From: Lytechinus pictus
Lineage: Eukaryota
DNA length: 64,000 nt
Reading direction: 5' to 3'
NCBI RefSeq assembly: GCF_037042905.1
Contig: NC_087251.1
Span: forward strand, 2,792,001 to 2,856,000
This document shows, in pieces, positions 8,053 through 50,700 of the stretch; positions within the stretch are counted from its first letter, which is position 1, and every line of letters starts with the position of its first letter. A program made the position numbers and the translations under genes. The notes beneath the pieces were generated by a model. It ran no database searches and had not been told where the DNA came from. It saw nothing but the letters and a program-made list of their open reading frames with translations.

Positions 8053-8134
8053 CGACGAGGATGGGATTCGAACCCACGCGTGCAGAGCACAATGGATTAG
8101 CAGTCCATCGCCTTAACCACTCGGCCACCTCGTC
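8053..8134 (-). tRNA. tRNA-Ser (anticodon GCT), 82 nt, long variable arm
   Basis: Reverse complement reads GACGAGGTGGCCGAGTGGTTAAGGCGATGGACTGCTAATCCATTGTGCTCTGCACGCGTGGGTTCGAATCCCATCCTCGTCG. It has an acceptor stem, A box, GCT anticodon in a GATGGA/TCCATT stem, variable arm and GGTTCGAATCC B box. Confidence 0.97.
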
Positions 8135-17617: not shown

Positions 17618-17761
17618 ATGATGATGAATGGAGATGTTAAGCTGGGGCCAATCTCTGTCAATGGGGGTAGTCACTATGGCAACCAAGATAATGAAGGTTA
17701 TGAGAATGATGGATTTGAACTTCATGAAGAGAGTAGCTGGTCCTCAAACAAGCATGTAGAG
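17618..17761 (+). CDS. MPP5: MPP5 coding exon A1 ([10 protein letters not shown]...SNKHVE); exon begins at 17575
   Basis: Acceptor TTTTAG at 17574, in-frame TGA upstream of the ATG, 48 open codons, donor GAG|GTATGT, phase 0 matching the next exon. Confidence 0.75.
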
Positions 17762-20700: not shown

Positions 20701-23700
20701 AAATTAAGCAAAACTTGAAAAATGTCATAACTTTCTTATTTTACATCCAATTTTGATTAAATTTTCTTGCATAGCAGAGCGAGACTATATGCGCCACTTT
20801 TCTGATGGCGGCGGCGGCGTCAACATCATATCTTAACCTAAGGTTAAGTTTTATAATGACATCATAACTTAAAAAGTATATGGACCTAGTTCATAAAACT
20901 TAGACATAAGAGTAATCAAGTATCACTGAATATACTGTGCGAGTTTCAGGTCACATGACCAAGGTCGAAGGTCATTTAAGGTCGATGAACTTTGGCCATG
21001 TTGTAGGTAATCGTTGAATTGCCATCATTGCTAACTTTGAGTTAATGTTATAAGTTAATGAAATGTTGACATGGGTAATCCAGTCGTAGGTCACTTGATC
21101 AAGGTCAATTGTCATTTAGGGTCAATGAACGTACATGTACTAGCATACTATACAAATGTTGTTTTTTGTGAATAATTATTTCAGAGTCATTTTCAAAGTC
21201 AGCACTGCTGCTATATTGAATCGCGTTGTGCAGGCTTGTTTTCTTTGGCCACTGGCCGGCCATGAAATTGATCAAAGGAAAATACATCATGTTAATCCTT
21301 GCAGCTAGTTTTTTCAAGAAATTCTTGATGTAATTACATGTATCAATGAAACATTTCACTTTGTGAATCATGGGGATAATTTCCCTTTTTTCTATAGGAG
21401 GTAGAGATGACAACAATACTAGAGATTGGACCTAATGATCAACGATTTGGATTCTCTGTGATGGGAGGTCTTGAGGAAGGTTTCTTACCAAGTGTTGATG
21501 CCATCTTACAAGGTAAGAAGCATGACAATTAGTGATGATAAATTACAATAGCTTGTTCCGGCCCTAAAATACCTGGTGATTTATTTAGGGTATACAGTTG
21601 TCTATGCCATCACCTACTGTTACAGCACATCCTATCCCAATAGTCAAAGGGCGTGTTTATGCTTCCACTTTTCAGGCCAGAATCAGCGTTTTCATACGTG
21701 ATTAGTCCAAAACACAGTTGCGTCAATGCTTACTTTCATTTAGACGACGTTTCAGAACGCCGATCGTAAACTTACAAAAAGGTGTGTTTCTAAACTTTGT
21801 TTGACCAGAATCAGGGTTTCTGGGGAAGTATAAACAGGACCACGATCGTAAATGTGTTTAAATGAAGTCTTTTGGTACATGCTTCCTGTGAGATGCAACG
21901 AATATTGCAATTTTCTGTAAATCAATTAATAATACAGGATGATTTAAGCTCTTGATGTTTCAAATACATTTTTGGAGGAAGTATTAAGAGATGACTACAA
22001 TTTTCGGTACTGAATTTCCAACAGAAAAGTCCATATTTTCCCCAAAATTACTAAATCATGGAAATGGAATGCCCCCCAAAAAGAACATTAAAGTAAGTTG
22101 ACATTTTGTAATTTATTCCTCATACATGTATGTAGTCCGGGGTATTTTGAATCTTTTCATTCTAGGGGGGGGGGGAGAATTTGCACAATGGAAGAAAATG
22201 ACATAATCTATCAGGTTTCAAAGCTTAATTTCATTGAATCAATATGCTTTATTTCATTTGAATCAATTATGCCAATTTTAGTGCATGAATGAAATAAAAG
22301 TTTAGGTTTAAATCTATAAATAAAGCCCTTGAACTGCTTATTTTTTTAATTGAGGAACTCTGATCAAAGCATATTAGATTAAAAAACATCAGTATAAAAT
22401 GTTTTTTAATGTTTGTTTTAAATAACTTATTAAAAAAAAAATTATTATGTACATTTAAAAAAAATACTTTTTTATTGTTTTTTTAATGGAAATCTGCAAT
22501 AATTTTTCAATATTACCAAAAATACAAATAATGATACAGATACAAATTTGGGCGTGAATTTGCATTGGCTTTATACATGTAATCATGTTTTTGAGCAATT
22601 TGGGGTCTGACATACATGTTCACTTGTGTAATATCACATTAAACCGAATACCCATGCATGCATCCCAATAGTAGTCTTGAATGACATGGCCTGGCCCTGT
22701 CGGGTTAATGGATGTATCATAGAAAATTTTTTGGGGGCCATTAAGGTCCCCTCGGATTACAATGTTAAGATTAAAGGTCAAGGCCACCCCAGAAAAATGT
22801 TGATTTTAATCAATATAGAAAAATCAAACAAGCATAATGCTGAAAATTTCATCAAAATTGGATTTAAAGTTTCGCTTATTTTTCATGTTTCAGTTGTATG
22901 CATAACTCAGTGATAAATGCAAATGAGTTGATTATGTCCCTCACTCACTATTTTTTTTATTGTTTGAATAAAAAAATACAATATTTCAATTTTTTACATA
23001 TTTAACAATAATTACCAACTTAACTGAACCAAAATATGTTAAAATGTTATGTGGAGCGTTGTGGCCCAGTGGATTAGTCTTCGGACTTTGAAACAGAGGG
23101 TCGTGGGTTCGAATCCCAGCCATGGCGTAATTTCCTTCGGCAAGAAACTGATCCACAATGTGCCGCACTCAACCCAGGTGAGGTAAATGGGTACCGGTAG
23201 GAAGTAATTCCTTAAAAAGCTGTGTGCGCTATGAACGCCTAGCTTAGCCGGGTAATATAGGAGCGCCTTGAGCACCTAACAAGGTGGATATGTGCGCAAT
23301 ATAAATACCCTATATTATTATTATTATTATTATTAAAACAATAAATGGTAGGTCCACATGTTCAGGAAGGATAAAACTTTATTTCACATGACAATGAGGA
23401 GAAAATGATGAAATACAAAGAAATAGTGAGTGATGTCATCAGTCCCCTCATTTGCATACTGACCAGGATGTGCATATTAATTTGCGAAATTAAGCGAAAC
23501 TTTAAAATATCATAACTTTCTTAATTTACATCCGATTTTGATGAAATTTTAGCATTATGCGAGCTGGATTTTTCTCTTTTTACTCAATTTAACTTTTTCT
23601 TGGGGTGGACTTGTCCTTTAAGTTTTGCTCGCTGATTATCTTATGCTGTTTAGTACTTTTCTTCATCATTACAAAGTGCAAAGATTCACCTGCTTTTGTG

Positions 23701-26700
23701 TGTACCTCAAGAGTACCGTCTATTTATAAAATATTATGCTTGTGCAACACTTCCATTTCATTCAAGTACTACAATTACATGTATTTGAACTTATTTTAAA
23801 TAGTGTTTCTTTCCCTGTCCAAAAAATGAGCACAACACACAGATATGTTTGTTAAAATGAGAATATTCTTAATATGGATTGATGTGCACAATTTAACAGG
23901 GAGGAAAGGAACATGACAAAGCAATAGAGAAAGGGAGAATAAGGGAGGAAGAGAAAAAAAGAGCATTGAGAAAGAGTTTTAGTAAGTTAGAAGAAAATAA
24001 TACATTACTTAAGTGCATAGAGACATGATTTTATCATCGTTATATGCGCTATATAAGCAATGTTTTATTATTATTATTATTATTAAGAAATGAAAGTATA
24101 AAAAAAAACATTCATCTAAAATCACATCCATGGATGCAAATTTACAACACACAAGTCTATGAGGTGTTTAAAAAAAACATGTTTTTTTTGTATAAAAAAA
24201 AACTGGTGTTTCAAAATGCGTTTTAAAACATGTTTTAAAACACACCGTTTAAAACATGCCAACCCTGATTAACTCTTCCCATTGTGAGCCAGCAGCAAGA
24301 CTCACTTTCAGCTAAAGATGCACATTCTTCTTTCCTGAATCCTACAGTGCTTGAAATTTGCTTCAAAATCATAAAAATCTTGACCTTCAAAAAAAATCAC
24401 TACAAATTTTTTTTTTGCAAGTTTGAATCTTTAAGAACCTGCCTCAGACTAGAATTGCAGCCCAACCTGTTATATGCTTTTCACACTGCACTTTTTGTCC
24501 TAAATTGGTGGGGCTAAGGAGGGTCTTATCCCCACCAATTTCCCGGGGTTAAGCTTAGCCCACTTCGTTTTCACACTACGTTATAGCAAAGTGGGCTAGC
24601 ACGGTAAATAGTACGGTACTATCTGGCCCTGCAAAAAAGCAGGGTTAGCCGGCTTATTGTGGTGCTAGCACCACAATTGCGGTGCTAAGAGATGCAGTGT
24701 GAAACGAAACAGGGCTAAGCAAAAGTGGGGCTAAGCATTAGCCAATCACAGAAGTCGAAATTGCACGTTAATCGCGCTCTGTATGGTAAAATCATCAATA
24801 TCTATGAGCTGTGTGATTGCCTGTGTTAGGCGTTAACCCCGGTTAAGCAAATAGTACGGGGTTAAGAAAGACAGTGTGAATCGAAAAAAAGATAGTATGG
24901 GGTTAAGGATAGTCCGGGGTTCAGGATAGTATGGGGTTAAGGAAATGCAGTGTGAAAAGCATATTAGAGTCTGGTAACCTGGACCAGCTCAAATAGATGT
25001 TTGTTTTGAACTTCTACATACATGTATTATGTGACTGACACCACCTTTTGACCTTGTCCTCGAAAGAGGACACAAGCCTGATAATCTTTTTATTCTTGTT
25101 ACCATTCCAACACCTAAACATGTCACATGCCACTACCTCTTGAACACTGTTACTTGGTAGGTCCATGATATAATCTGGTAGAAGAGAGGATCATGCAAAC
25201 AGCTGCTTTCACTTTCAGAAGAAAAATTATCCCCTGGAGGCCAACTACATGCAAATCAAACAAAATAATAATAGTAATAATAATATTAATGATGATGATG
25301 ATGATAATGATGATGATGAGTAGTGGCTTAAGTTTGTTGTCCAGCTTCTTTGGTGGCATCTTCAGTTAACTGGTTGTCCATATTTGACAAAAACTTTTTT
25401 CCGCAGTAGGCGCAAGCAGGGACGTGAGAGCATGTCCCTGGCGCAAGTAATCTTTGTGTCGTGGATGAACTGATCTGTCTGGAGAAATTTCTCTTTATAA
25501 AGAGTGAGTCCATCAGGACATGAATTCGATAGAACAATACATCCTCTGTGGTGACAAATAGTGCGTGATATGGGCAATTCCATAGGTTGGTGGACATGAG
25601 CTCAATGTGTCTTTGTACTGTATAGCCCATCTGAACTGTACATTTTAATTGTGTTTGCCTTACTTATACTTATTGCTGGTTCTTTAATTGATGTTAAGGG
25701 CTTGAGGCAAGAAATGGAATGCATTTGTTTTACAATTTTTTATTTACACAGCCCAAGACAGATCTCGTACAGTTTAGTGAATACATTACCAATATACTGA
25801 CCAATAAGTAAAAGAGGAGGAAACTTATTCAGAATGTTACCTTTAAACATAAACTGGTGTCTGAAATCCTACTGATTATTACAGAAACAGAAACATGAAT
25901 CGTACACACATTATTGAATTTTTAGTGACATTTATGTTGTTGACCATACATGGACAAAATGTAACGTGAGTAACCACTTTATCTGCACCCCTAGTAAAAA
26001 CCATGTGTTCTTTATTTTTAGAATTACAGTATGTACAAAGTTTGTCTCCCTAATATACTTCTTTGAAATTGATATAATCAACTTTCATAAAAGCCTTGTA
26101 TGAGGATACTTTTCACTTATGTTGACTTTTCATTTTATGCATGTCCAAATTATGTAACATGAGTAACCGACACATTTCAAAGATTTGCCAGGAGCATAAT
26201 ACAATTTCCCAAGTTTTGTTTTTATACAAAGGATAGTCAGACTGCGTACTTTGTTGTGATAAAGAGATGTACATGTATAGTTCCTATCAATGATAATGGA
26301 GTTACAGCTCCAAGTATGAGTCAAGGTGTCTCCAAATGTAACGTGGGTAACCGTGGAATAGCCCATATGGTGACCTGTGTGAGAGACATTTTGGATAAAG
26401 GAAAGTGAGGAGGTGTAACATTTTCATTTCCGATTTCTTTGATCATGGTTTCGAAATCAGTTTAATTATTTCCTTACATGTATGTTGGGAACTTATATAA
26501 ATCCTTAATTTTGAAATGTTGTTTTCTGTATTGTTCAAATTTCCAACACCCATTGATTGGAATACCGGATTCTGACCAGTGCAACGTTGATAGAATCTGG
26601 CCTGATAAGGCCAAGTAAAAAAAGAAAGTAGTTGATCGTCCTCATGCGCATCTATTTTTGCCGCCGCATGTAATTTTTTACTATTTACTATTTTCAAATA

Positions 26701-29700
26701 TTGGCAAAAAAAATATCAAAAAGTGATATTTCTCGTCCACGCCCGCTTCCCTTTTTGATTGCCGCATCAAATTTCTTGATTTTTACTATTTTTATGGCTG
26801 CTGAAAAGCGAAAAAAATTCACAAGATTGGCGAGCGATTTGCTCTCATGTGCTCTGGGATTTCTCTCGCAACTTCATAAAATGATAATAATAATAATAGT
26901 TGGATTTATAAAGCGCTTTTTGCCAGAGGATACAAAGCGCTGCTATTATTACCCCGGCTTTAGCTCGAGCTACCATCACCGGCGCTCAGTGCATGCAAGG
27001 AATTACTCCTGCCGGGTACCCATTCACCTCACCTGGGTCGAGTGCAGCACAGTGTGGATAAATTTCTTGCTGAAGGAAAATACGCCATGGCTACGATTCG
27101 AACACACGACCCTCTGTTTCAAAGGCGAGAGTCAGAACCACTAGACCACGACGCACCCATAAAACAATTGCAAAGTCCGATATCGCCGTAACTGGGATGA
27201 AGAAAAAAATTCTGATTTGGTTTTTTATTGGTACTTTGGAAGATACAATCATAAATCAACAAGAAAATAAAGTTTGCAAACTCGGAAAAATCACAGATTT
27301 CTTCATTTTTAATGCAGTACTGGTATACATCAGTAATACATCAATAGTTTTTCATTGCATAATACATTTTCCTTAGATTTCCAATTAATTAATTAATTAG
27401 TTTTCTACTCATTTATTATTAATATTGAGCATGCATTGATCATATAAATCTGGCATGGCCTGACAATTATTTGATTAAAAAATAGCAACAAAAAAAGTAA
27501 ATAGTAAGGACCTCCCTCATCACTGATGTGAAAAAATGGGCCGAGAAAATGTCTCCTTGTTTTAAAAAAAAATAGTAAGATAGCAAATAGTAAGGAGGCC
27601 TCATCACTGCTCCCGAAAAACCCGGACGATCAACTACTATCTTTTTTTACCTGGCCTAATGATGGTAATGATAATATCAAAATATTTGGTCCAGTTTCCT
27701 GTATATACATGTCGTGCATCCATTATCAAGGAATGTCAATCGTGTTAGAAACATTCTTTCTATACAGTGTACAAGTTAAGAAAATAATTAATAGTGACAG
27801 AGGAGTATAAATGTGAAAAAAAATGCTAATGATACTGTTTAAAAAGGAAGTCCACCCCCCAAAAAAAGGGTTGGTTAGAATACAAAAGGTAAAATCAAAT
27901 AAGGTTAAACATTTCATCAAAATTTGTTATAAATCTGTATGAAATTTTTAAAATTGTTGTTGCTTATAAAGCTCTCTATGGTAATGCAGTGCATTTGCCC
28001 TGGCTTTACAGCTGTTACACTGGGTTTCAAGCACTGCATTTACCTAAATGTCATGGAAGTGCACATCCTCGTCCTTTTGCAAATAAGCGAACCTTTGACA
28101 TTAGCCATGACTCTTATGATTTCTTTTGTAAATTTATAATATGAAATAATCTCAATTTTATTCCTCTTTATGTGAGTTTGATTCCTTCCTGAACATGTGG
28201 AATTGCCATGTTTTGTGATTCAAGGAAGAGTTTTCTATTTGGCAAATCTGCCACATTTTATAATCTATAATTCCATATAATATATAAAATACAAAAAGAG
28301 AGTGAGTGTGTGACATCATTGGCTCTCTCGTTTGCATCATGGAGGTAGACCTCCATGTTTGCATTATATATCTCCATGTATGTGATGTGCACATGTAGAC
28401 CTACATGTTAGCCTAACTTTTGTGAAAAATATGTTAAACTTTTAAGTGTTACTTTTTGATGAAATTTCCAAAATTATACTTGTTGATTTTTCTCTATTCC
28501 AGGGCTCCACACTAACCCTTTTTTTTCTACTGGTCCAACTTGTTCATGTTGGACCAGTGAGTAGATACCCACTTTTTTCTATTTTTACTGGTCCAAACCT
28601 GAATTTTTCTTGTCCCGAAAAATAAAGAAAAGGATAAAAAAAGGACTTGAATTTAGTTTTTCTGTCTTTTATTGCTATTACCGGTATTGCCCCCTAAAAA
28701 ACATACAAACATACAGTACACGCACAACATAATTCATGAGAGAAATCTAAGAGAGAAATTTTGTTAAGACACCAGAGCCATTTTGATAATTTACAAATGA
28801 TGAGAAAATATCATTTGTATCAGTTTGATATATAAATAGATACTGAATTGAATTGAATATATATTTTACTGGTCATGTCGGACCAGCAAAGCTGGCTTTT
28901 TCTGAAAAAGTACTGACCCGGCAGCCATTTTTACTGGTCTGAGACCGTCAGACCAGTGCCAGTGTCGCGCACTGTCTATTCATTCAAATAAACTATTAGT
29001 AGGGTTGGACTTGACCTTTAATACACATTGCAAATCACATGAAGTAAGTTGTTAAAAATATGAAATGCTGTAACAATGACTATTATTAGTAAAGGGCTAA
29101 AGTGCGTATAAAAAAAAAGTTTACACTTAGAAAAAATCCTGTAAAATTATGCATTTGTAATATCCTGAAGATTTTTCCACATCTTAACATTGGTACAGAT
29201 CCATGTAAGCAAATGGCGATATAACTGTTGAAAAATATTTCCGCTTAAGTGAGCACCACTTACTTTTGAAAAGTTAGTGAAAAATGATTTGCGCAGAACT
29301 TTGAAATAGTTAAGCGAATTAAAGTAGACCTTAATCATGAAGAACACGTGGAATTTAGCTAGCGAAATTGATATGAAGATATCTTTTACCTTTTTCAACT
29401 TTGCCCAAAACACTTCGAAGAGTGCATTGCGCCCCACACACCGAGGCCGTTGTGACGATATTTGCTTTACACTGAGCTGTCAATTACATGAAATGGCTTA
29501 GGCTTGATTTTCATTTTGTTAATCATTGTCAAGCTTGGGAAAAGTGTGGAGAAACGAGCATTAAATGAAAAATGAAATGTAAACCCACTTTTAATGACAA
29601 AAACTTAGTGAAAAAATGCTGGAGATGTCTGATATAAACTTTTGTTCAGATTCAGTTATGTCCTCAGATTCAGCTGGCACAAAAAGGGTAAAGGTTGTGC

Positions 29701-32700
29701 TTACTAAGTGTTGAAATTTCAATTTGGGTGGCAAAGTTGTTACAAAATGCTTGAATGTATCCGTTTTATTTCAAATGACTAAAAGTACAAGGGAAATGTA
29801 TGAAAAATGTTTCGCAGGGTAAGTTTGATTTTGCCCTTTCCCCGTGACACAGCGTGAAAACAAGCATTTCTGCGCAAACAGATTTCTATAAAGAAAGCCA
29901 GTGAAAAATATTCAGCTCTTTATTGACTCTGAAAAAGATCGTTTTATGATGTAAAAAAAAATCAAAAGTGGATTGGTGCATCTTTAAATCCATGAAATGG
30001 TCATTTATTTTGCATATTTCCTGGAATTTTTTAAAAATTAGTTAAAAACTATCAAGAAAATTAAGAATATTCACCTCTCTCTTGTCTTTTCTTCATCATT
30101 TTATGATGTTACACTCGGTCAATATTTTTTTATCGTAGTCCCGCATGTAGACTTTCATGGGGTTTTTTCATGGTGTTGCAGCATTGATCGTTGATCGTAT
30201 CATTTGATTGTTTTACACTTGGTCAACATGAAAGTCTACATGTGGGACCACAATAATGAAAAGCATTTACTGAGTACATCATCATAAATCAGAGTAAAGA
30301 AAGAGAGTCAAGAAAGAGCTTAATATTCTTCATTTTTTCAGTAGTTTCCAACTATCAAAACATTTTCAAGGTAATATGGAAAATAGATGGCCATTTCATG
30401 GATTTTTGCAAAATGTGAAATTTTAGCCACTTTTGGTGGGGTTTTTTGCAAATTGCTCAAGTAGCGCATGGGCAGTCATTGCACACATAGAACGTAAGAT
30501 GCGATGGCACGGTTTTTCAAATGAGGTACCTGGCGATAAATTATTGGTAATTGGCGCTGTTTTTATATCAGTTTCCACTGTTTTTTTTACTGGTTTGACA
30601 TAATCTGAGAGATAGTTGTGATTATCCAAATGATATTGAAATTTGAGGGTCTACTGATATTTTATTTCCAAAACAACCACTTGCCCGATCGGGCAATTGA
30701 CTTTGAGAAATGCTTGCCCGCACGTCATTTTCACTTGCCCCGGGCAAGCGGTTTTGTCGCGCCCTGATTCTGTCAAAACTTTTACTTTTATTAAATAGAT
30801 GAGACCCAAACCCAAGATTATATGTGAAAAAATTACCCACATGTTGTATATTTTTTAATTCCCAGGGCATTGTCAAAGTGTAAACTTTTTTTATATGCAC
30901 TGTATAGGAAATTAAAGATAGATAAAGAAAGTGAATGAATTTGAACAAAGATACTGGGGAAAGTGTAATATAAACTACAAAATATTATTAACTTAAACTT
31001 TTTTTTTTATAATGATGGAGATACCAAGATTTATGATTTACACATGATGTGTACACATGTGAAACTATAGCAAGAATTTAAATGCCAAGATATTGAACTT
31101 ACTGTGTATACATGTAGTTCTAAATGATAAGCAGCCTCCATAGCTGACATAATCTCACCCAGAAAGTCTTCTGTCAAATTGAGATTAAAATCTAAAGTAG
31201 ACTCCACCCGAATTGTGATGAAAATTAACTGTCACTATCCAAACAAATCTGCAATAGAAGTGATTTTCTCTCTCTCTCTTTCTCTCATATTACTTGGGTA
31301 GATTTATTTGTTAGTTTGTTGCATCATGGTATTTATATTGAATACTTCCTTTCTAGGGGTAGAGATGATTTGCATGGAGGCTAAATGTCTCTTTTCATGA
31401 ATGGAATTCATGCAGGAAACATATATGCACTATAAACACAAAAGCCCCTCTTAAAGAAAAAAATGAAGTGAAAAAAAGTATTAAAGAAGCTGAAAGAAGA
31501 AAATACTTGGTAGTCATAGCGAAATGGAAATTGGCATGTAAATTATAATTATTTAATGTTCAATATTGATAGTTTCACACTGTCTGATTTCCAATGGAAG
31601 GAAAGAAAGACAGGCTTGATTAAGAAATAACCTATTTTGCCAGTATTAAAGGGGAATCCAACACAAATAAAAACTTGTTTTTAGAGGAAAAGCAAAACCA
31701 GACAAGTTGGTAGGTTTGAACAATATCTGATACACAGTAAGAAAGTTCTAAATTTTAAAAGTTGTGATAATTGGTAATCACTATTTCCATGAAGACTTCA
31801 AATTGGCTGCTTATGTGATGTCATCTACATGTAGCAGCGTTGAAAATAGACGGGAGTGACAAGCGATTTCGCTCTCGCTCTCGCAACTGCCTAAAACTGT
31901 TTAAGTACCGAGCGACTCCCAACATGAAAATCACTCCCGCCCATCCAGTCTCCCATCCACGCCTGCATAGTAGCCAGGCCAGTGCAGCTGCAGTTTTTAC
32001 TTCCATGCATCACCGCTTTCTGACGTGTTACTGAGAAAATTCCTATCCAGTTCATTGAAACTCCAATATCCCTGGGTACTATTTTTTAAAATGCTGCGAT
32101 GTAAACATTGATAGTGAAAAATTGGCTCTTTTCTTGCTTTTTGAAGATACCATCCTGAATTTGCTATAGAAAATAAGTTTGTGAACTCAGGACAAAATCA
32201 CAGATTTTTGTCTCACCTTCAAAGCAGAGTGAGACTACAGTGCGTATAAAAAAACGGGACAGTTTTGAAAAGTCTATAAAAAATTTGTTTCAAATCATTA
32301 TATCTATATTTTGATGTTAATAAATGCTCTGAGATCTTATCTTTGAAATGCCATTAAAAAAAATAAATTCTGTTCATGCTTGAGCAAACACGGGACGTTT
32401 TTGTCGGGGGTTCAAAAAGAGGCTTGTGCCAAAATGGCAGAAATGAGAAATTTGATGATTAGACCTTTTGCTAATCAGCAGACTTCCTTTTAATCTTTTC
32501 ATTACTTTTGCCATAATGTTCGAATTATGCTGTCAAATTTCATTTACAAATTTATTTATTTACCTGAATTTTTTTTTTCATTTTTACTTCTTTTACCTTG
32601 GAATTTCCTTAATAAGTAAGAAAAGAAGACTTTTCGTCAACCAAAGTACGAAGATTTGCATTTTTAATTGGGAGAATTTGTAATTATTCAAACCCTTTTA

Positions 32701-35700: not shown

Positions 35701-38700
35701 ATGATACCAAGTGTTAAACGCAGTAGAGTATTTATATAGTAATATAACTGGGCTATATAAATGGTCCATATTACTATAGTATTGTATTGTATTTATTTTC
35801 CGTCAATTAAAACAATAATGATATATATTTACAATCATAAAGAAAAGATCTATAAAAAGACAGAGGGATTGCCCTCCTCAGCGTTGATAATACATCAATG
35901 CTGTTCTACAGAGTACAGAGGGGTCCCTAACAAATATAAACATGTAAACATATAAGCAGGATAGGAAAAACTTAGTTGACTTACAATGAAGACATTAGTA
36001 TTATTAATATGTTGAATTAATCTATCTCATGGCTCCCTCACAGGCCCCTGAACATACCCCAAATGTTATGAAATTACTGGACTTCTGCCTTCTGGGCTTA
36101 ATATAAAATATTTATATTGCTCTTATAGGTTTCTCATGACAATATGAATCCCAATTACTCAATATGAATACTGTGTCTTGCTCTCATATTGTTATCACAT
36201 AATATACAAATAATAAATGTTTATGAGTGCAATGGACAGAATACTTCATGAGGTGAAAGATGAAATGATCATGCAATCATCATCTGAATGGATCATTATT
36301 TCATCTTTCACCGAATGAAGTATTCTGTCCGTTGCACGAATGAAAAAAAAAATCATTATTTGGTTTATATGACACCTAAATTTGTTTAGAATAATAGTAT
36401 TACGTGCAAATAATAATATTTGTAAATGTTAGACATGTATATTTTTGTAGAGAGAACAAATTGTCATTCATTTCTCATAAAAGGTCAAGACAAACTAATT
36501 CAACACCAGCTGAAACTGAACTTTACGTCAGTGGCTAATTTTGTCGAAGGCATCTTGGTAAAGGGTCACACTCTCACATTTTAGTCAAGATTAGAAAAGT
36601 GTAGTGGCCATATTTTATTTATTTTTTGTCATTGATTCTTTTTAAAAATGTGATTTTTGAGCATTTTTCTTACTAATTAAGTGCTTGGATTTTAGGAAGC
36701 CATATTAGACAAAGAATATTCTTAAGCTTTAGCCTATTCTATCCTTGCATCCTTGAGAACTGCTTTAATAATGAAAAAAATGCAAATAGTTTTTTTTTTG
36801 ACACCCAATCAAAGTACATTGTAAATGTCACATTTCCAAATTCCAACGAATGTATATTCCCCTCATCATACTTCATCGCTGTTTTCATGCATACACATTC
36901 TTATCATCTAGTATCGAATTGGAACAGTATATGCACTGACATGTACATGTAGGGGGGGGGATTTACCAGACATTATAAGAGGCTTTAATATGTGATAAAG
37001 TTGCATGTAAGTTAATCCCACTGAAAATCATCTGGAAAGTAAACAGGAACAAAGCTGTTTCTGTTTCCTTGCTACCTGTAGCCTGGCCTATATACACATC
37101 CAAGCCAGATTGATGCAACACTCAACAGGCCAGGGGGAGGGGCTTGCGAACTAATATCAAGAGTCCTTATGAGTGTATGCATATCGTATCTCGCGGGTGT
37201 ATGGAGGGAGATTGTGGTTCCATACTGTGAGTGTATCTTTACGTTCCCAAGTCAGACTCATAAAAGCTGGCAGTGTCACTGAAGAGGTCATTCTGCCCAT
37301 TCTACAGAAATATTTTCTATACTGATGGATAAACTTTGTTTGTTGATGAGTTTCTGTTGGTTGAAAAAGGATCCTGCGCATTCCTTGGAGTTTTTGCAAA
37401 CAATAGTGGTGGTGGTACTGGACCATAGCTAAACTCTGATTATTCTTTTCTTATCATATTGTTTGCCATCCCATTCCTTATTTTGGGGAGTATCATAAAG
37501 TCTTCAATCATAGTAGAGAGTGTCACTGTAAATGATCTTTCTGTAAATACATCTACCAACATTCCAGCTCTACATATTAGAGGAGTGATGTTCCATTGAT
37601 TAGATAGACCTGCATCCGATGTGAAAGATGTACAGGAGTTTTGAACCTGAGATAGCCTAATAATGCTTTCTTCTTCTTAGTGTGCTCAATTGCTGCTTGA
37701 CCTTGTTATTTGCTCAAACAGCGCTGATCATTTGGGAAGACATATCTTGAGACTGAGGGTAGGAATCAATATCCTGTCAGCCGGTGCAAGTTCATGGTTG
37801 AATGATGGACAAAATAAGTATATCCTCAAATTACGTGCTTAATTTCTGCTCAGACCTTGGTGCTTGTGCAGCTGGCGATGTATAGTTCAATGAGAATCTT
37901 CCTGACAGGACACTTGATTAATTTCTGTTCTAGCTTTATTAATCATGTTAATTAGGTTACATATTGGCTGTGCTCTATCTACATGGTAGGAATACATCTT
38001 TATCAGGATATACATGGAGCTTCATCTTATTTGACCAATGATAATACTCTAGTCTTCAGTGGATTGCCATTTGTCAAGTGTGCTCCTATCTATAAAACTG
38101 CTCTGTGTTGCATAAGTTTTTTTTAATTGTCTATTGAGGGATTTAATTTAACGCAAAGACGACCATGGATTTACATGTATTTTGATTTTGTAATCATTTT
38201 GGATTTTGTTCAGTGTACTCTTTCATTGTGTGGGTGCTGTAATTGTTGGCAATAACAAGAATAGATTCAAGCCTACTCTGCAGTACTTACTACAATTCTC
38301 TTGGAGATATTTTTGCAGTGTTGATGAAATAGACTCTGATAATCAGAGGAATATTAATTTTGAAGTTTCTGAGGAGTATAATTGAATGATGGGTGTGCCC
38401 ATAGAATCCAGTTCCCCACCCACCAATCAAAACCACAGGAAGAAAATGATGGACATAGGAGGATACATGATCATGCTGGCTGAAATGAAGAACAAAAAGA
38501 TCAAACTTTATGGTAAGCCCATTATAGTGGTCTAGACTTAAGTGGTTTATGTTTATCTCTTGGAGTTTACTTCTTTACTTTTTTTTTTTTTGGGGGGGGG
38601 TCTCATTAGCACAGGAGAAGAAGCAAGCAATAGATGGACACTGCATTTGAACAATAATTAAAAAAAATATTTGATCACCATCAAATGGTAATTAGATTAT

Positions 38701-41700: not shown

Positions 41701-44700
41701 ATTTGGTTGGACTTATACATCTTGGCATTCTAAAAGAACATCAGTTAAAAGTTGAATGCGAGGACGGGAGAAGGAGGAGGCCAAAAAGATACAGGGTCCG
41801 ATCCTGGCTGTCACCTAAGTCATAATATACAATATTTCTAAAATTTCATTCAAAAGATGTCGATGAGCCTAATAGTTAATATGAGGGATGCATCAAGAAT
41901 TTCATAAAAGAGCATAAAAATCTTTGATATTCTGTTTATTTTTTTCCACAAAGTTTGTCACTCAAAAATATTTGGTAAATTCCTTTCAAATTTGCTGACA
42001 AGAAGTAGTCTACTGATGTGAGAGCACTCATAAAAAGGGAGGGGGAGGGGGGCACAATGCCAGAATCTCCCTAAAGATTGCCTTTCCCAATCAATACATT
42101 AGTGATCAAATCATTAACAAAATTTGATGTTGTCTACTGTCACTGGTTAGAATTCAATTTATTTTCAAAACATAATCAATTTATTTATTTCTGCAGAGGT
42201 AACCCATTTCGTCATCAAGACATGTGAGCGTCTTTTTTCTCTTTCCAGCTGGCTCAGCAGTAAGATTTTCATCCTCCTCCTGTACCCCCTCCTCTTCCTC
42301 CTCTACATCCTCCTCCTCTACCACTACCATAACCCCTTGATCTTCCTCTTCGACCGCCAGCCTAAGAGGGGTAGCTTGGGCAGCTTTCCCTTTTCTGGTC
42401 CTTTTTCTGGGAGGTATGTTTGAAAACGCCGTGGTATCGCCTCGTAATCTGTTGCAAATATGATAATCCGCCACAATCGGCACGGCGTTTTATAGCAGCG
42501 CGGACGGTTGTTGCGCAATCGCTGCCCAGTCATCAGCGGCGCAGCAAAAGCGCAACGCAAACGCCTGTAGCGGGCTGAGAACGTGTGCCACATGCCACCC
42601 AAAGAAGGAAGCGTCGTGGTGGAAGCTGTGAGAAGCGTATCGAGCGCAAGGCAGTCGCCTTGTAAACGGAAGCAGCGTAGCAGAATTGTCTTGGGAACGG
42701 GCCTGAAAACCACAAGCGATCGGTGCCGCTTTTAATGCGCTTATACTACGCTTTATGCGTTGGGGCTCCGTTACAGCTACGAATATGTCGTTTGTAATAC
42801 GCTCATGACTCGATTGTGATGCGCTTTAGCACCTCCGCGATCTCGCTACATAAGTTTTGAACATGTTCAAAATTTTGTGGCGACCATAAAGATGGTGGCG
42901 ATCCTTGCCGCTTCAGAAAAGATCAAGGTACGACGGAGAAGATTGAAAAGATCAAGGCACGATCAAGCTACGTTATACCACGCTTTGTCGATTTTTGACG
43001 ATCGCAGTGGAATCGCCATCTAGTGAGATGGGGGTATAACAAAGGTAATGCATATTTAACAAAACAAAACAATAATACAAACAATATTGAGTCCTTTTAA
43101 AAGCAAAACCCAAGTAATGTGACATTTTCGGGTCCCTTAACCTTTCTTGAATTGAATTAAGCTGCATCTGATGCACATCTGCAAATTCATGAAATAGGCA
43201 TTATTGAGAAATACTTTTATGCAACAACTCAGTAGATTATTACATAATCCCCTGTTACAAATATCATAATGCACACACAATTCACACATCATTTTTTGTC
43301 TCGGTGAGACAGCAAAAGTAAGACATAGTGCTGATTTTCCAACCAGTGACAGTAGCATTATCAACATCAATATCATAACCAAGGTTAAGATTTTGAAATG
43401 TCTATCCATATTCCATTTAAACTTATTTTTTCTTTGGTAAGCTGGATACTATTGCTGATTGTTGTAGAAATTCAAGAAAAATACAAATTGAAATTTTATT
43501 ATCAATGCTTGACAGAGTCTTATCATAAATGCCTATAAAAATAATGGACTTTGGAGTCGCTGACATTTGGACATTTCAAGAATGATTAATTGATTGCATG
43601 ATACAGATGAGATTGTGGGGGATGTTCCACTTGTTTTTTTTTGTATTGTGTTGATCTTCTTCATCATCTTCTTTGTCTTCTTCACTTTGTCACTCAAAAA
43701 TATTTGGTAAATTCCTTTCAAATTTGCTGACAAGAAGTAGTCTACTGATGTGAGAGCACTCATAAAAAGGGAGGGGGAGGGGGGCACAATGCCAGAATCT
43801 CCCTAAAGATTGCCTTTCCCAATCAATACATTAGTGATCGAATCATTAACAAAATTTGATGTTGTCTTCTTCTTTTCCTTCTTGGTTGTCTTCCCCTTTC
43901 TCTTTTTTTCTCTTATGTTTTTCTCCCTCTCTGGTTTTCTTCTTGTATTTCACCTCATCAGCTGTTTGATGCTTCAATGATATTAATAGCAGCAGTTGCA
44001 GGAGTAGTAGTACATGTAGCATTCCGATATAGTTGCATTACAAAGTCTTCACAGAAATGATATATGTACTATTGTACTGTACATGTATATGATTACACAG
44101 ATCTAACCATACTTAACAAAAAAATAATGTCCTTGTCTCTTCCAATCCCTTCTGTTTGGTCTCCTAAATGGTTTGCTCATTAGTGTCACCAATTACAGCT
44201 TTAATTGCATACATGAGGGTTAATTATTGACTGGGGTAATATCCTGACCAAACATATGCTCATAAGTCCCTTTTAAATCAGTTCTTGATTTTTGGAAATA
44301 GTATTATTTAGATATATTTTGCATGGAATGTATCTTATCAAAACCTGGTTAAAGCTTTGATACATGTAAAAGGTCAGTTAGGTGAATTATGCCGAGTATC
44401 ATCTAACATGATAATCTTTAATAGCAATTTGTGATGCTCTTTTATCAACTATCAAGATATCTTTTTTCAACTTTTCATTCTCTGTAAAAATTCAAATATT
44501 CAGATCTTGGATATCTAGCACCCTCAGCATTTTTTTTATACGCCCGTCCTAGACGGGACGTATTACAGACCTGCCAACCAGTACGTTTTTGCCGTATTTA
44601 GTACGTTTTTGCAACCAAAATACGGCAGTATGTTTTTTCTTAGAAAAATAAGTTTTTTTAATTTTTATTTTTCACTAAATCGTAATTTATTGAGAAAAAT

Positions 44701-47700
44701 AATCTCTATATGTCTCTATTTTATAAAACGTACACAAATATGGTTATTAGATCAATGTAATTTCAGGTAACTTATTTTTTTTTCAATCATTTTGTTAAAA
44801 CCAGGGTGAAGATATACACATGTTTTAATGGTTTTTTTTTCCATCTGCAAGAGCAGTGCGCATTTTAGCTTGCATGCAGCTTGAGCGCCGTGATGAGCGA
44901 GTGCGCCAAGCATTTTATTATTAAATACACTTTTTTTGGGAAAAATACAGTTTTTCATTCCCAGAGGTTGGCAGGTCTGCATATTTATCTCACATGGTAA
45001 AAATACTGATTTTTTGTCAAAATACTGATTTTGGGGGATAAGAATACTGAAAATGCAAAATACAACTTGGCAGCTCTGGTATTATGGTATCACGCTCGGT
45101 GTCCGTCCGTCCGTTAACTTTTCCTTGTAAACGCGATAACTTCAGTTTGACTTAACCTAGGCTCATATAATTTGGTGTGTATAATACTAGCATGGATCCC
45201 AGAAAGCCTATTGATTTTGAGGTCAAAAGGTCAAGGTCACAGTGACATATTTTCATCTTACCCTTCTGCAGTCCTTGTAAACACGATAACTTCAGTTTAA
45301 TCTAACCTAGGATCATATAATTTAATTTGGTGTGTATGATACTAGCATGGATCCCAGAAAGCCTATTGATTTTGAGGTCAAAAGGTCAAGGTCACAGTGA
45401 CATATTTTCATCTTACCCTTCTGCAGTCCTTGTAAACATAATAACTTCAGTTTAACTTAACCTAGGCTTCTATAATTTGGTGTGTATGATACTAGCCTGG
45501 ATCCCAGGAAGCCTATTGTTTTTTAGGTCAGAAGGTCAAAGGTGAAGTCGCCACCTTCCACTTTTCTTGCTTGACCAATAACTCCATTTTCCGCATTGCA
45601 GGCGGGCGTATTATGTGCTCACCTTAGCGACACTCATGTTCTTTTATTAAAGAGGCTTTTATTGCACTTTCTTACAAATATAGTGACTGGAAATGAGAAA
45701 GCTTTACAATTTTATTATCAGCTTCGTCTATAACTTTGTAAGGCATCCCCATTCATAATCAAGTAATGAATGTGAATAGTGCACTGTAACATTGTTTAAG
45801 CCTGTCACTCAAACAACTACTGTTTGAACTTTTTAAACAACTGTTTAAACTTTATATAAACATCTGTTTAAACAAGTTGTTGAAAAAGTTTAACCAATTA
45901 CAAAAATGTTTAAACAACTTGTTAGAGTGACAGGCTTTCATTTGGGTGAATTTACCTAACTAAAGACAGGCTTTAAAAACTGCCTGTCAACCCCCATACA
46001 GAGCCCAGTTAGTTGGGGGTTTGAAGTTGGGGGGTTTCATATACCTATCCTCCAATTAGCCGCCTAATAGTAATGCGGATAATTCAATAAATATTGCGTT
46101 CACAAACTCCGAAAATTATCCGCATTATTTTTACGAGCGCCCGTCCTGAAAAAGGCGGATAATCGTCATGACAACTGGACACGCCCCCTCCGATGCGGTT
46201 GTGTTGGAAAAGGGTGACCTTGTGACCGCACCATGGCAATTATCCGCATTATTTGGAAATATGTTCATAAACTCAAAATCTTGTCCCGATGCTGCTATTA
46301 TGCGGATAATTGCAGCATCAAAATAATGCGGATAACTCTGGTCCTCCTCCGATTTTACGACCAAATTATGCTGCTATTAGCCGCATAATTGGGTTTATGA
46401 AAGGGGTATATGTCTGGCTTGCCATGTCAAGTGGCTGAACCTGGTAGCCTGGTATTTGGTGCTGTGTATTATTGGAAACAAAAGTTAGGGAATTAGGCAT
46501 GATGAATCATATTTTAGTAATAACTGCAGAATAGGAAGGACAGGCGGTATCTCCCTTGTTTCTAATGTAATTTTCTGTAAACTTTTCCTTGCTCAGCTCT
46601 GTCCTTTAATGCTCCTAAAACCCTGTGCACAAAATGTGATGTGATTGCACTAAGATCCGATTGGAACAATTTGCCAATTGCATCTCGGTGCATTTGCATT
46701 GCAGGCCAGCTCTGCAACGCCCTGCATCTCCATGGTGCCTCCTCCATGCACTGATGCAAGGCCAATTCGATGAACATTTTTTTTCTGTCTCGGATTTGCA
46801 ATTTCGCCCCAGATTTTGGGTTACAACATGCTTATTTCAGATTTTTAGACTTGAATATCAAATTAAATTCAAAATTTGAGATCTACGTGTATACTTGACC
46901 GATAAGCATTGTTCAACCTCAGCTCTGAAGCAGTTACACCAATCAGGCCAGTCGAATAAGACGTCATTTTCCAATTTACTATAGGTGGTTTCAAACCGCC
47001 TCGATCATAAGAATCCCCGTTAAATTACGAGAACTTTTTAAGGCCAAAAAATACCCATTAATTATTCCTGCATTCACACCGCCCCGAAACATACCCTTCG
47101 GGATAAGTTCCTGAAGTTACGAGCATTCGCAGTATGGTCTGATAAGCAAGCGAGGCGCGATATTCAAAATCACTAGCTCAGCAGCCACCCAAGGCGCCTG
47201 CGCCCAACTACACGCTGGGCTAAAAGTTCCCGTAAATTGCTATCACATTGCCAAAATACCTGCGACCTTGGATAAATCCCCGCGAAAGTTCTAGTAATTT
47301 TGACAAGTACCTACTATTTAGTGGGTATTTTCTTTCGGGGAGATTACGCGTAATTTGCTTTCACATTTCCAATATTACCTGGTATTTTAAATACCTGGAA
47401 CTGACAAGGTCAGGTCCGAGCTGGTAAGCGATATGTCTTAACTGCAGTTAAATTAGTTCAGTAAGAAATTGGTGGTGTAGTGCTGTTGTGAATTTGTTTT
47501 AAACCTGATTGTGGAGATTGAAAACTGGTGCTGATGTTTTATTTTTGCCCCAAAACTTTTGGATGGTTCACGGTCAGCTCCACTAGTACCATACAAGAAA
47601 ATCTTTGCTATATGTGCTATTACTCCTATGTATTTTGACTTTTAATTATTTTAGAGTATAATGCACATGAATATGATTATTTTTCCATCTCAAATCGATG

Positions 47701-50700
47701 CTACAACATGAATCTCATTTAAATCCAAAGAAACATACTAATTTTGGTGCTACCAGATTCTGACTATACTTTATGAACAGCATGTTTGAAGCAGAATTGT
47801 TTCATTTCTTTCAGTATTTAAAGAGAAATTCCAGTAGTTGCAGTAAACACTGATTTCATGAGAAAGTCTGCAAAACCAGGCTTAATTGTCAGTATATCAT
47901 CGAGGATCTAGATCCCAACACAGATAAGCGCGCGTGTATAATTGTAGCTTTGAGCGTCGGGCCCGACGCTCTACCCGAATCCTGTGCTTATTTGCTGATT
48001 TCTCAGCAATTACACAATTTCTTCCAGAATCCTTTGGCACATGCGTTTTATTTATACAAACAGACACTTTGGTGGTAATTTCATTGGATTCTGTACGAAC
48101 TCATTTTGATATCGTTACCAAAACTAGCATTTACCTTTAATGTGACCATTTCAGGATGCTTGATCTAGCAGAAAACATTGAAGATTGAGTTTATTTACAT
48201 ATATAGACAGACATCAAATTTTGATATTTTGTTGGTCCAGATTGATGGTGGGTGAGAATTTTATTAGCCCCTAGCCTAGGCTTGATATGAGTTTTCCTTT
48301 ATTTTACAGGTTCTCCAGCTGATCGAGCAGATCTTGAAATTGGAGATGAAATCTTAGAGGTTAATGGAAGATCATTAGAAAATGCAACCCATGAAGAAGT
48401 TATTGCACATATTCATCAGGTAAGTTTAGTCTTTTTTTCCACTTCTGATCAACACTGAAATAGTCCTCAAAGCTCCCCCCAGAAATTCCTAATATCAAGT
48501 ATGGTAGTTTGGAATTATACACCATATACCAGTAAGTTGCATGCATACAATACCATTTGTCACAATTTTTACTAGATCACCAATTAAAATGCTGATAGTC
48601 TATAGTGAATTCAATTTTAAAACAGCCATAACTCCTTTTCTTTCAAACATTTATCATGGTACTTTTCTTTTTCTTTTAATATTTTTCTCCTTTAGACGAA
48701 TCATGTTATTACCAAGGTTGGATTCTACTTTAAAATATTTTCTCTTGAAATTATTGATCATTGCAACTACTCAAATCTTGCTTTTAATAAAAGTTCATGA
48801 ATTCAGTGTGATGTTCCCATGTGTGTAAGATCACAAAAAGATTTGATGTTCATTTGGGGTTAATTTTAAGAATATAATTATGTTTGTATTATTCCTCTTA
48901 CTTGTATGTTTTACAGTGTGTAAAATCAAGAACAATAAATCTGCGAGTTAAAAGGAGGACCATAAGAGATGGAGGTAAGCTAAACATGATTTGTTTATTA
49001 ATTTGCAATGAATGTTTTTAACATGGATAAAATTGTTGTCAAATATTCCATTGCATTGCATGATATACAAGATGAACATTGTGGTTTGTTGAGCTGAATG
49101 AATTGAATAGTTGAATCTGATACCCACATACCAGTATCCTCAATATTTATGCCCTCTACCACTTTTTGAATCAGTACCTCACTTTGCACCTCATTGAAGC
49201 CCAAGGGTCCCATTTCATAAAGATTTACAACTATTGTAACTTTTTATGAAATGGGTTCCAGATTTGAATTTCTATTGAACTTGGGACATCAGGTCAAAGT
49301 CATGGTCAGTAAAACTTGGCACTTGTCCAAATATCCCCAAACAGCTAGATTTGGAACTTGTTCACATGGTTAGAGGCATTAAAGCACATAATAAATTTTG
49401 TAAAAACTTATTGACTCAGGATCCTCACTGAAGGAACCTGCAAACGGGAATATAAAATAGCTACAGAGGGGGTACTTTACAATCAGTAGAAGGACATAGT
49501 TATCATGAAATGTGTGGTTTCCTGTTTGATAACAGTGTAATGGCTTGTTGTACAAAGAGTTGTAATTAAATGCAACTAAAACATCAAACAAACTTCTATT
49601 GCAACCAATCAAGACCATGTACTGTATTTGTGACTTGCTTGTAATATTTTGAGTTTTTGTAAGTGCAACTTTCTACAGCCCCCCCCCCCCCTTCCTCCCT
49701 CCCCTCCTGGGGGGGGGGGTGTCACTCTCCACATGGCCTGCTACGCACCCGCATCCAGAAAAAGCGTCGAAAAGGGTCCCGTTTCAGGCACTCAGGCGTT
49801 GTCGACGTCTTTGGCAAAAAGGGTGGCATTTCAGCACCATTTGCTGGTAAATCGCCTTTTAGGGTAGCCTTTTCTCTCTCTCTTCACGCCATTTAGGGTT
49901 GCTAATTTGGTTATGAAGATGACGCCATTGAGGGGTGTAAATATGGATAGATCTACGCCATTTAAGGATGCAAATTTGAGAAGATTCGGGAGCAGACCTA
50001 AGCCATAAACACCATGAAGGGTGTGATTTCAAGGGATATAAAATAATTCTCGCACACGCCGGCCAGCGTATCACTTATGAGAGAATACCCCCATACAGTA
50101 TATAGTCTCTAGTCTTACACTCTGCTCTATACTATAGGCAGCACGCCTAGGGTTTAGGCCTTTAGTCTGTACCATTTTGTTTGATTCATACCGGGGATTC
50201 CTATGATTTTTTTTTAATTATCAATTTAAAAAAAAAGAAGACATATATAGAGGTTTACTTAATGTATGTATTTTCAAACACATTAACTGGTATGGATTCC
50301 ATTTTTTCAAGTTTTGATGAAACTGGTAAAACGAATGGTAATAAGTGATGCATCAGTCAGTCAAGGCAAACAACATTTTTCACTTGCATTCATGAATTTA
50401 GGCTAAAAGATGGCTATTCAAAGTGGCTAAGAGAGGTGTCATTGAGAGTAAATTATGCTGGCCTTACTTGCAATAATTTAAAAAAAATGCCTGGAATTTA
50501 TACCTGTTGTATGTAACATCAATTTAACATCAGTAATCAGTATGGTATCAAATTAATCAATTTCGATGTGTTTACGCCACTTAGGGTATCGAATTAGGGG
50601 CTTTTCCCTGTTAACGCCACTTAGGGTGGCTTTTCTCATGGGTTACGCCATTTAGGGTTGCAAATCTAGTTAATGTAGTTACGCCGTTTAGGGTGCATTC

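Follow-up and report, generated by a model that had tools for sequence, protein, structure and literature searches.

Can one gene build the same PDZ domain with either of two N-terminal halves? The question is raised by a locus of the sea urchin Lytechinus pictus, analysed here in a window of 64,000 nucleotides (the whole stretch from position 2,792,001 to 2,856,000 of contig NC_087251.1), which contains the 5' two-thirds of a PALS1/MPP5/Stardust gene. The encoded polarity scaffold is a MAGUK that combines PDZ, SH3, and guanylate-kinase domains. In the Crumbs polarity complex, PALS1/Stardust is the central adaptor. The protein annotated in the window (P0001), whose exons map in it, has precomputed matches to PF00595, PF07653, and PF00625, i.e., to the PDZ, SH3, and guanylate-kinase families, while PF02828 (tandem L27) is listed on the orthologues P0003 and P0006 and is absent from its own listing. 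The best matches bear the names MAGUK p55 subfamily member 5 or protein PALS1-like; the closest named relatives are the MAGUK p55 subfamily member 5 of S. purpuratus, the PALS1-like proteins of Diadema and Antedon, and the "MAGUK p55 family member stardust" of Tachypleus.

The domain in question, PDZ0, is an extra N-terminal PDZ that is built by exons A2, 3, and 4 and is absent from vertebrate PALS1. The PALS1/Stardust proteins of flies and vertebrates have been described with a single PDZ (e.g., PMC5968619); most non-vertebrate bilaterians sampled have the extra N-terminal one. Inside the intron that interrupts PDZ0 lies a further exon, B. The explanation that we consider probable as a whole, including the internal promoter and the hairpin proposed below, is that exon B serves as an alternative 5' coding exon with an ATG of its own and takes the place of the first half of PDZ0.

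Exon anatomy of PDZ0

Exon reads and protein models bear out the original prediction of two alternative N-terminal PDZ halves that join a common exon 3 in equal phase, and the coordinates predicted for exon A2, exon B, exon 3, and the intron are correct to the base (Table 1). The mapping of stored protein models onto the window recovered the same exon set. The donors of exons A2 and B cut one and the same Gly codon (G/GT, phase 1), and both fit exon 3. Exon B starts 16,873 nt inside the A-form intron, and the gap between it and exon 3 is 9,797 nt.

Table 1. Features of the PDZ0-encoding region, numbered from the first nucleotide of the window (a slash marks a splice site)
Feature	Position	Strand	Description
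Exon A1, coding part	17618..17761	+	A-form start codon; ends in SSNKHVE; phase-0 donor gtatgt; N-terminus of stored isoform P0007
Exon A2, canonical first half of PDZ0	21398..21512	+	betaA, RFGF loop, betaB, betaC; acceptor ...ttctatag/ upstream; one leftover base, phase-1 end G/gtaaga (donor at 21513)
A-form phase-1 intron	21513..48309	+	26,797 nt; houses exon B
Exon B, coding part	38386..38512	+	in-frame TGA immediately 5' of ATG; 42 codons + 1 base (G); donor gtaagc at 38513; N-terminus of P0001
Exon B, conserved core	38446..38512	+	counterpart of MVDLGGYVIILVETKDKKIKLYG in other phyla; ends in extra G
Exon 3, common to A and B forms	48310..48419	+	PDZ alphaA to alphaB; acceptor ttttacag/; donor gtaagt at 48420
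Exon 4, common to A and B forms	48917..48977	+	last PDZ strand; phase-1 donor
Exon 5, common to A and B forms	54948..55753	+	conserved opening motif, then long, weakly conserved linker

As had been predicted, exon B has an ATG of its own (38386) directly after an in-frame stop. The peptide given for it earlier was right in its core and too short at its start, which had been taken at the second Met pair (MMDIGGY...); the frame from 38386 gives 20 more residues. These additional N-terminal residues occur in diverged versions in two further sea-urchin lineages, and a leader of 17-20 residues is found in sea urchins only. Most relatives have their initiator Met at the position of the first Met of the core.

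In the protein models, exon B combines its own start codon with a closed upstream frame and a same-phase join to exon 3, and the reading of exon A1 or A2 into the sequence immediately 5' of exon B runs into stop codons. From these stops, together with the TGA in frame and the ATG that follows it, we infer that B transcripts begin at an internal promoter, which would set the start of the B form.

The opening motif of exon 5 comprises the invariant columns A111, V113, I114, A115, V116, and E117; the comparison of this exon with Pfam and PDB gave no match.

Distribution and conservation of the A and B forms

Outside the window, exon B is also the N-terminus of P0008 (second assembly), and it opens the X2 isoforms of S. 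purpuratus (XP_011680078.2) and Diadema setosum (XP_072171712.1); in P0027, an S. purpuratus-like genomic ORF, the similarity breaks off directly past the donor. With the exon B peptide alone as a query, matches were limited to sea urchins, and the wide distribution became visible only with a query taken from PDZ0 of the A isoform. The latter search gave 66 PALS1/Stardust-type matches, comprising 29 A-type, 34 B-type, and 3 that are neither. N-termini of the form DxGGYxIxL..KIKLYGSPAD, which the original prediction tentatively attributed to arthropod Stardust predictions, are present in 34 of these 66 proteins; the attribution is correct. The start Met stands two residues ahead of D/E-L-x-G-Y in 28 of the 34 B-type proteins.

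For 12 species, RefSeq assigns A and B to a single gene as two isoforms. These species, which range from shrimps to lancelets, belong to four phyla (echinoderms, hemichordates, lancelets, and arthropods), which bears out the supposition that the pair is ancient, and in 10 of the 12 the two isoforms are identical at all positions downstream of the junction. B-type proteins were also seen in a nemertean and a mussel. All 20 PDZ0-bearing pterygote proteins seen are B-type, a count of database proteins and not of genomes, and these insect proteins conserve the shared half of the PDZ, including the His that opens alphaB. Among the isoforms listed for the crinoid Antedon, the B isoform is absent. 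A lack of conservation of the exon B peptide in related genomes had been set beforehand as part of a possible refutation; the peptide was found conserved from echinoderms to arthropods.

Contigs of 3789-5468 bp (P0059, P0060, P0076, P0080, and P0133) contain entire B-type coding sequences (1060-1193 aa); in the window, the same coding sequence is spread over more than 46 kb. Such short, intron-less contigs carrying the B form in relatives are transcript-derived. Two sea-urchin contigs of transcript size were seen (P0004 and P0017), and both are A-type. Isoforms of the same gene that are devoid of the PDZ are present as well (P0002, P0025, P0098, P0110, P0120, and P0132).

The B core comprises 23 residues conserved across Bilateria. 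Among the 12 two-isoform species, its mean pairwise identity (0.71) equals that of betaB-betaC of the A form (0.71), with 0.55 for the whole A2 exon and 0.73 for the shared half. In the alignment of 32 B-type proteins, G26, Y27, I29, L41, and G43 are invariant. Alternating hydrophobic residues are frequent in the core, as they typically are in buried strands but not in disordered motifs.

The bare combination of an ATG-started ORF with a phase-1 donor is not beyond chance in the A-form intron: two ORFs of at least 20 codons ending at a phase-1 GTAAG (exon B and the ORF at positions 32516 to 32615) were observed vs. 1.5 ± 1.2 in 200 shuffles. The case for exon B is made by its conservation in other species, which, as far as comparison of sequences goes, shows it to be genuine. 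In a search of its own genome exon B proved single-copy, and a second B-like exon was absent; exon 3 occurs once, in addition to three weak PDZ-like matches elsewhere. The Pfam scan of six long intronic or upstream ORFs returned nothing, and the ORF at 32516-32615, considered as a third first exon, was rejected, as its peptide is of low complexity and the proteins seen include no relative of it.

Fold of PDZ0 in the two forms

The A form matches PF00595 at profile positions 8-80 of 81 (E = 4.1e-13) and PDZ domains of the PDB from E = 2.3e-14. The RFGF of exon A2 is the GLGF-type loop before betaB and recurs as (R/K)FGF in all 29 A-type matches; in PDZ domains, a loop of this type binds the ligand carboxylate. 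In the B form, which has no betaA, the match to PF00595 begins at residue 43, just past the 42 residues of exon B, and ends at residue 90; it covers no more than profile positions 35-80 of 81. An invariant G-Y precedes a hydrophobic strand in the B-type proteins and may be a degenerate carboxylate loop, and the alignments to PDB PDZ domains extend N-terminally as far as IKLYG, which they place in the last part of betaC. The structure model of the B form, built from a four-sequence alignment only, was uninformative (mean pLDDT 48), and the ESM Atlas offered generic PDZ look-alikes only.

These features suggest that exon B would swap out betaA, the RFGF loop, betaB, and betaC for a different peptide, in which YMIMLAE, a turn, and KIKLY are predicted to form a hairpin after a degenerate x-x-G-aromatic loop. 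Placed where betaB-betaC would otherwise stand, such a hairpin could yield a changed yet working PDZ and not a dead stump, and the L27 region, PDZ, SH3, and GuK downstream would be alike in both forms. Against this strand assignment, a global profile alignment of the A and B halves, when forced, matched the opening strand of B to betaA, with zero confidence. That the B core is a compact beta-hairpin of this kind, giving a PDZ without betaA, with a re-shaped groove and other ligand specificity or affinity and with everything downstream unchanged, has in our estimate slightly less than an even chance. The wider proposal, that by this half-domain swap one gene makes two working PDZs with different ligand preferences, that the switch goes back to the bilaterian ancestor and was retained from then on, and that insects lost the canonical half, is put forward more tentatively still.

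The replacement of one coding half by another could be illusory if exon B were not a coding first exon in this sea urchin and owed its status to faulty annotation, or if it were a cassette exon or a poison exon that terminates the frame when included after A2. The chance-level frequency of the ORF-and-donor pattern in the intron would allow this, as would a candidate acceptor (tttttgcag) about 68 nt 5' of the ATG, with which exon B could be internal; yet 21-23 of the 23 residues of the exon B peptide are the same in three sea-urchin lineages, the peptide is still identifiable throughout Bilateria, the similarity stops at the donor, and the intron-less contigs of relatives encode the B form as a complete coding sequence, so that this explanation is very hard to credit. 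If exon B is accepted as a first coding exon, it might still have arisen with A2 by duplication of one exon, the two being diverged copies in a mutually exclusive pair, and not by recruitment of an unrelated exon. The common phase, junction, and split Gly codon, the short hydrophobic strand with which each exon finishes ahead of G/SPAD, and the same A2-then-B order in the spider gene model P0055 speak for such an origin. BLASTP of the A and B halves, however, gave no alignment and the profile-profile comparison (hhalign) a probability of about 0, the conserved lengths differ (38 vs. 23 residues), and B contains a start codon for which A2 has no need. We regard a common origin of the two exons as improbable.

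A different objection concerns function: the B form may be a disabled or unfolded half-PDZ with no groove, its peptide being kept as a docking motif, as a localisation or stability signal, or for strand pairing with another protein or a second copy. The Pfam match of the B form takes in 57% of the PDZ profile, all of it C-terminal, the B half has no similarity to the A half, and confidence is low along the whole of the shallow structure model; moreover, the existence of PDZ-less isoforms of the gene means that a loss of PDZ0 function is tolerated. A minor alteration of a PDZ can be enough to lower binding strongly, as with the 5-residue insertion of PTP-BL PDZ2as (PMC4365404). Plain loss of function, however, would not keep 23 residues at a mean identity of 0.71 over four phyla, the alternation of hydrophobic residues in the core fits buried strands and not a disordered motif, and the high conservation of the shared PDZ half in insects, where B alone was seen, is unexpected for a stump. 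Because the B peptide is strongly conserved and is the sole form seen in insects, a merely disabled domain is disfavoured, and we consider it unlikely.

Related systems and relevance of the proposed half-domain swap

The conservation of two PDZ0 first halves to an equal degree suggests that the polarity machinery has an old interaction specific to one isoform, which lies outside the descriptions of model systems covered here. A functional exchange of half-domains, if true, would be a clean natural case of a change of the binding groove by this means, with relevance to PDZ specificity and fold tolerance. Domain annotation is concerned too, because profile methods label the B form a fragment; if both PDZs indeed work, insects would run PALS1/Stardust on a non-canonical PDZ alone, one that is complete to no current profile.

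The same feature is found in RefSeq-predicted isoform pairs of MPP5/PALS1-like genes, in which A and B N-termini meet at G/SPAD ahead of identical downstream parts, although these pairs come from automatic annotation only. Examples are S. purpuratus X1 (XP_030855584.1) and X2 (XP_011680078.2), X1 and X3 of Acanthaster planci and of Ptychodera flava, and stardust X1 and X3 of Tachypleus tridentatus. The two isoforms are thus already annotated, and our literature search brought up no paper in which the pair is described or interpreted.

Variation at the N-terminus of this and other PDZ scaffolds has been reported in several forms. In C. elegans, the PALS1 orthologue MAGU-2 has a long and a short isoform (MAGU-2a and MAGU-2b), with and without an extra N-terminal PDZ that is absent from PALS1 and dispensable for Crumbs binding in the yeast two-hybrid system (PMC9006659). 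Like the sea-urchin gene, it is a PALS1 orthologue with an optional extra N-terminal PDZ; in the parts of that paper dealing with the isoforms, however, the whole PDZ is either present or absent and a half-domain swap is not described. Sdt-H and Sdt-D, two forms of Drosophila Stardust, belong to the same gene family and likewise differ solely at the N-terminus, owing to an alternative start of transcription and translation, and have opposite effects in photoreceptors (PMC2982133); their N-termini differ in the ECR1 motif, though, and the passages of that paper on the two isoforms do not describe an N-terminal PDZ. Some transcripts of Drosophila Zasp66, another PDZ scaffold gene, encode a partial PDZ (PMC3591300), which, in contrast to the sea-urchin B form, is a truncation for which the relevant section reports no conserved replacement peptide. 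In PTP-BL, alternative RNA processing (PDZ2 vs. PDZ2as) alters the betaB-betaC region and hence the binding of ligands, according to the relevant parts of PMC4365404. There, a mammalian domain receives a 5-residue insertion by internal splicing, whereas in the sea urchin the exchange goes through an alternative first coding exon and takes in three strands plus the carboxylate loop.

Gene identity and splice junctions

An animal gene of many exons lies on the forward strand of the window. With the large exon 54935-55819 as query, a search returned the window's own proteins P0001 (962 aa) and P0002 (778 aa), as well as MAGUK p55 subfamily member 5 of Strongylocentrotus purpuratus and protein PALS1-like of Diadema and Antedon. 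Precomputed annotation of P0001 lists PDZ, SH3, and guanylate-kinase families. The exon positions were obtained by mapping P0001, a protein of the B form (exon B joined to exon 3), and its sister isoform P0007, of the A form (exons A1 and A2 joined to exon 3), onto the window.

Exons of the gene and other features of the window
Feature	Position	Strand	Basis
Exon A1	17618-17761	+	protein mapping
Exon A2	21398-21512	+	protein mapping
Exon B	38386-38512	+	protein mapping
Exon 3	48310-48419	+	protein mapping
Exon 4	48917-48977	+	protein mapping
Exon 5	from 54948	+	protein mapping
Nine more exons	after exon 5, to end of window	+	protein mapping
Leader of sea-urchin B form	38386-38445		
Motif after PDZ0	54948-55060 (P0001 residues 101-129)		
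tRNA-Ser gene (anticodon GCT)	8053-8134	-	Rfam (66 bits) and ARAGORN
GC-richer block	11982-13231	+	
Satellite-like arrays, 152-155 bp units	14093-14591; 45122-45539		
133-bp-unit array	57201-57620		
33-bp minisatellite	61593-61776		
Identical 46-residue open frames	41958-42098; 43690-43830	-	

Inspection of the sequence of exons, acceptors, and donors bore out all coordinates of the original prediction. Exon A2 is preceded by the acceptor ...ctatag and ends with ...TTACAAG before gtaaga, while the frame of exon B opens with an ATG at 38386, directly after a TGA, and ends with ...CTTTATG before gtaagc. Each of these donors leaves one G, which exon 3, behind its acceptor ttttacag, completes to GGT (Gly); the intron between A2 and exon 3 is 26,797 nt long. 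The N-terminal PDZ domain of the A form (PDZ0) matches positions 8-80 of the 81 of Pfam PF00595, and the B form only positions 35-80, beginning exactly at the first exon 3 residue. The pattern of an ATG frame with a phase-1 donor alone proves nothing, since the intron contains two frames that open with ATG, span 20 codons or more, and end at a phase-1 GTAAG, against 1.5 +/- 1.2 in shuffled sequence.

The start codon of the B form must come from exon B, because the TGA closes the frame just upstream and because A2 (phase 1) or A1 (phase 0), read past a possible acceptor near 38318, runs into a stop within a few codons. This suggests that B transcripts begin without the ATG of A1, i.e., from another promoter. 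In sea urchins only, an in-frame leader of 17-20 residues precedes the position of the B-form initiator Met of other phyla, and it is recognisably conserved in three sea-urchin lineages as MGVPL[ED]S..SPP..KK. The frame opens there at 38386/38389, the second ATG having A at -3 and G at +4, while the Met aligned with the start of other phyla lies at 38446/38449; either a leader ATG or the conserved Met may be the initiator in sea urchins.

Distribution and age of the A and B forms

The exon B peptide opens P0001 and P0008 (from a second assembly), as well as isoform X2 of S. purpuratus and of Diadema setosum, isoform X1 of the same genes opening with A1 and A2. Its last 23 residues (B core) are identical at 21-23 of 23 positions between sea-urchin lineages; the identity of the adjoining large exon falls to 53% against the closely related Diadema antillarum protein. 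A 57-residue S. purpuratus-like genomic ORF contains the same peptide, all similarity being lost immediately behind the donor's GK. Used alone as a query, the exon B peptide gave no match outside sea urchins among the protein matches listed.

With the A-isoform PDZ0 region as query, 66 proteins were obtained: 29 of A-type, 34 of B-type, and three of neither (a partial mite protein, a sponge GRIP-like protein, and the PDZ-less P0002). The B-type proteins read MVDLGGYVIILVETKDKKIKLYG followed by SPAD, with small variations, and 28 of the 34 open with a Met two residues before D/E-L-x-G-Y. They come from arachnids (spiders, scorpion, ticks), other arthropods (springtail, centipede, ostracod, Daphnia), insects (damselfly, mayflies, sawflies, parasitoid wasps, weevil), and from acorn worm, nemertean, and mussel. 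The original statement that such N-termini occur in arthropod Stardust predictions is therefore correct, and the predicted conservation of the peptide in relatives was found in sea urchins and beyond. This conservation shows that exon B is genuine and ancient.

Protein cluster listings pair an A with a B isoform of one gene in 12 species: the sea urchins L. pictus, S. purpuratus, and D. setosum; the echinoderms Acanthaster planci, Asterias amurensis, and Amphiura filiformis; the hemichordates Ptychodera flava and Glandiceps talaboti; a Branchiostoma hybrid; and the arthropods Penaeus monodon, Tachypleus tridentatus, and Folsomia candida. In 10 of them, the A and B isoforms do not differ anywhere beyond the junction; in the remaining two, further downstream splicing sets them apart. 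Mean pairwise identity over these species is the same, 0.71, in the B core and in the part of A that runs from RFGF up to the junction; the entire A2 exon reaches 0.55 and the following 56 shared residues 0.73. Since their lineages, which were checked, include both protostomes and deuterostomes, the pair is older than the split of these clades. That split dates back over half a billion years. No B isoform of a crinoid, and neither form of vertebrates or non-bilaterians, was present among the protein matches listed.

Five B-type proteins of 1060-1193 aa (P0059, P0060, P0076, P0080, and P0133) lie on contigs of only 3789-5468 bp, which must be without introns, as the gene exceeds 46 kb in the window; these contigs are taken as evidence of spliced B mRNA in their source organisms. 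Two sea-urchin contigs of transcript size (P0004 and P0017) are both A-type.

Some models are odd: P0055 of the spider Argiope reads A2 and B in tandem, in the exon order of the window; in P0128 (Penaeus chinensis X2) and P0106 (Asterias rubens), N-termini of still other kinds lead into the same SPAD junction; P0088 of Mytilus has an extra hydrophobic insert within the shared PDZ half. All four may be prediction errors.

Possible fold of the B form

We tentatively regard the B form as a re-grooved, functional PDZ domain. The strand just before the Gly-SPAD junction would be equivalent to betaC, because alignments to solved PDZ domains extend back into IKLYG. The hydrophobic run ahead of it, from which a polar turn of five residues divides it, would form betaB, the other strand of a hairpin, and the G-Y before that run, invariant in the alignment of 32 B-type proteins, may occupy the place of the G-aromatic of the GLGF loop. 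The B form would lack betaA and, between the glycine and the junction, have four residues fewer than the A form. The ends of PDZ folds are reported to be reconnectable, which the fold tolerates (PMC3503759), and small changes near betaB-betaC can strongly affect binding (PMC4365404). Against the re-grooved reading count the lack of B-to-A similarity by profile or pairwise methods and a single, unusable structure model of the B form; a forced global alignment, which with zero confidence placed the first B strand opposite betaA, counts against the betaB assignment.

That the B form is instead a non-binding remnant, whose peptide has another role, appears somewhat less likely. All 20 PDZ0-bearing pterygote insect proteins listed (nine cluster representatives and 11 members; database proteins, not genomes) are B-type, and no A-type insect protein was among the matches listed for the A-isoform PDZ0 query, in which it should have outranked B-type ones. 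Their shared PDZ half is highly conserved, including the His opening alphaB, which contacts the ligand in canonical PDZ domains. If insects indeed have the B form only, it is kept there without its A counterpart, which speaks against its PDZ being disabled.

In C. elegans, the long MAGU-2 isoform has an extra N-terminal PDZ, which is reported to be "not present in PALS1" and not needed for Crumbs binding (PMC9006659). A comparative paper gives Sdt/MPP5 a single PDZ (PMC5968619), in contrast to the extra PDZ0 here, and N-terminal variation of fly isoforms is described, in the available portions of the reports, without such a PDZ (PMC2982133, PMC5412571). No description of the A/B pair was found in the literature, subscription journals and supplements being outside the scope. 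Automatic public annotation already includes both isoforms, and the novelty lies in their interpretation rather than in the sequence.

PDZ-less isoforms and other features of the locus

Isoforms of several species that lack the PDZ (P0002, P0025, P0098, P0110, P0120, and P0132) start just before the motif that follows PDZ0, so that the gene has at least three N-terminal classes. This motif has invariant A, V, I, A, V, and E in 32 bilaterian proteins and gave no match in Pfam and PDB.

About 9.5 kb separate the tRNA-Ser gene from exon A1, which lies downstream of it in the window. The GC-richer block (0.45 vs. ~0.34) has several long open frames, one of 242 aa, and looks like a decayed mobile element; Pfam gave no family for its frames at E <= 0.01. 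The satellite-like arrays, located upstream of A1 and in the intron between B and exon 3, have a consensus that looks related. The 133-bp-unit array (3.2 copies, 95% matches) occupies a downstream intron, and the minisatellite (5.7 copies, 90% matches) reaches slightly into the start of the SH3-coding exon (61767). The two identical 46-residue open frames, 1.7 kb apart within the intron between A2 and exon 3, indicate a repeated element there.
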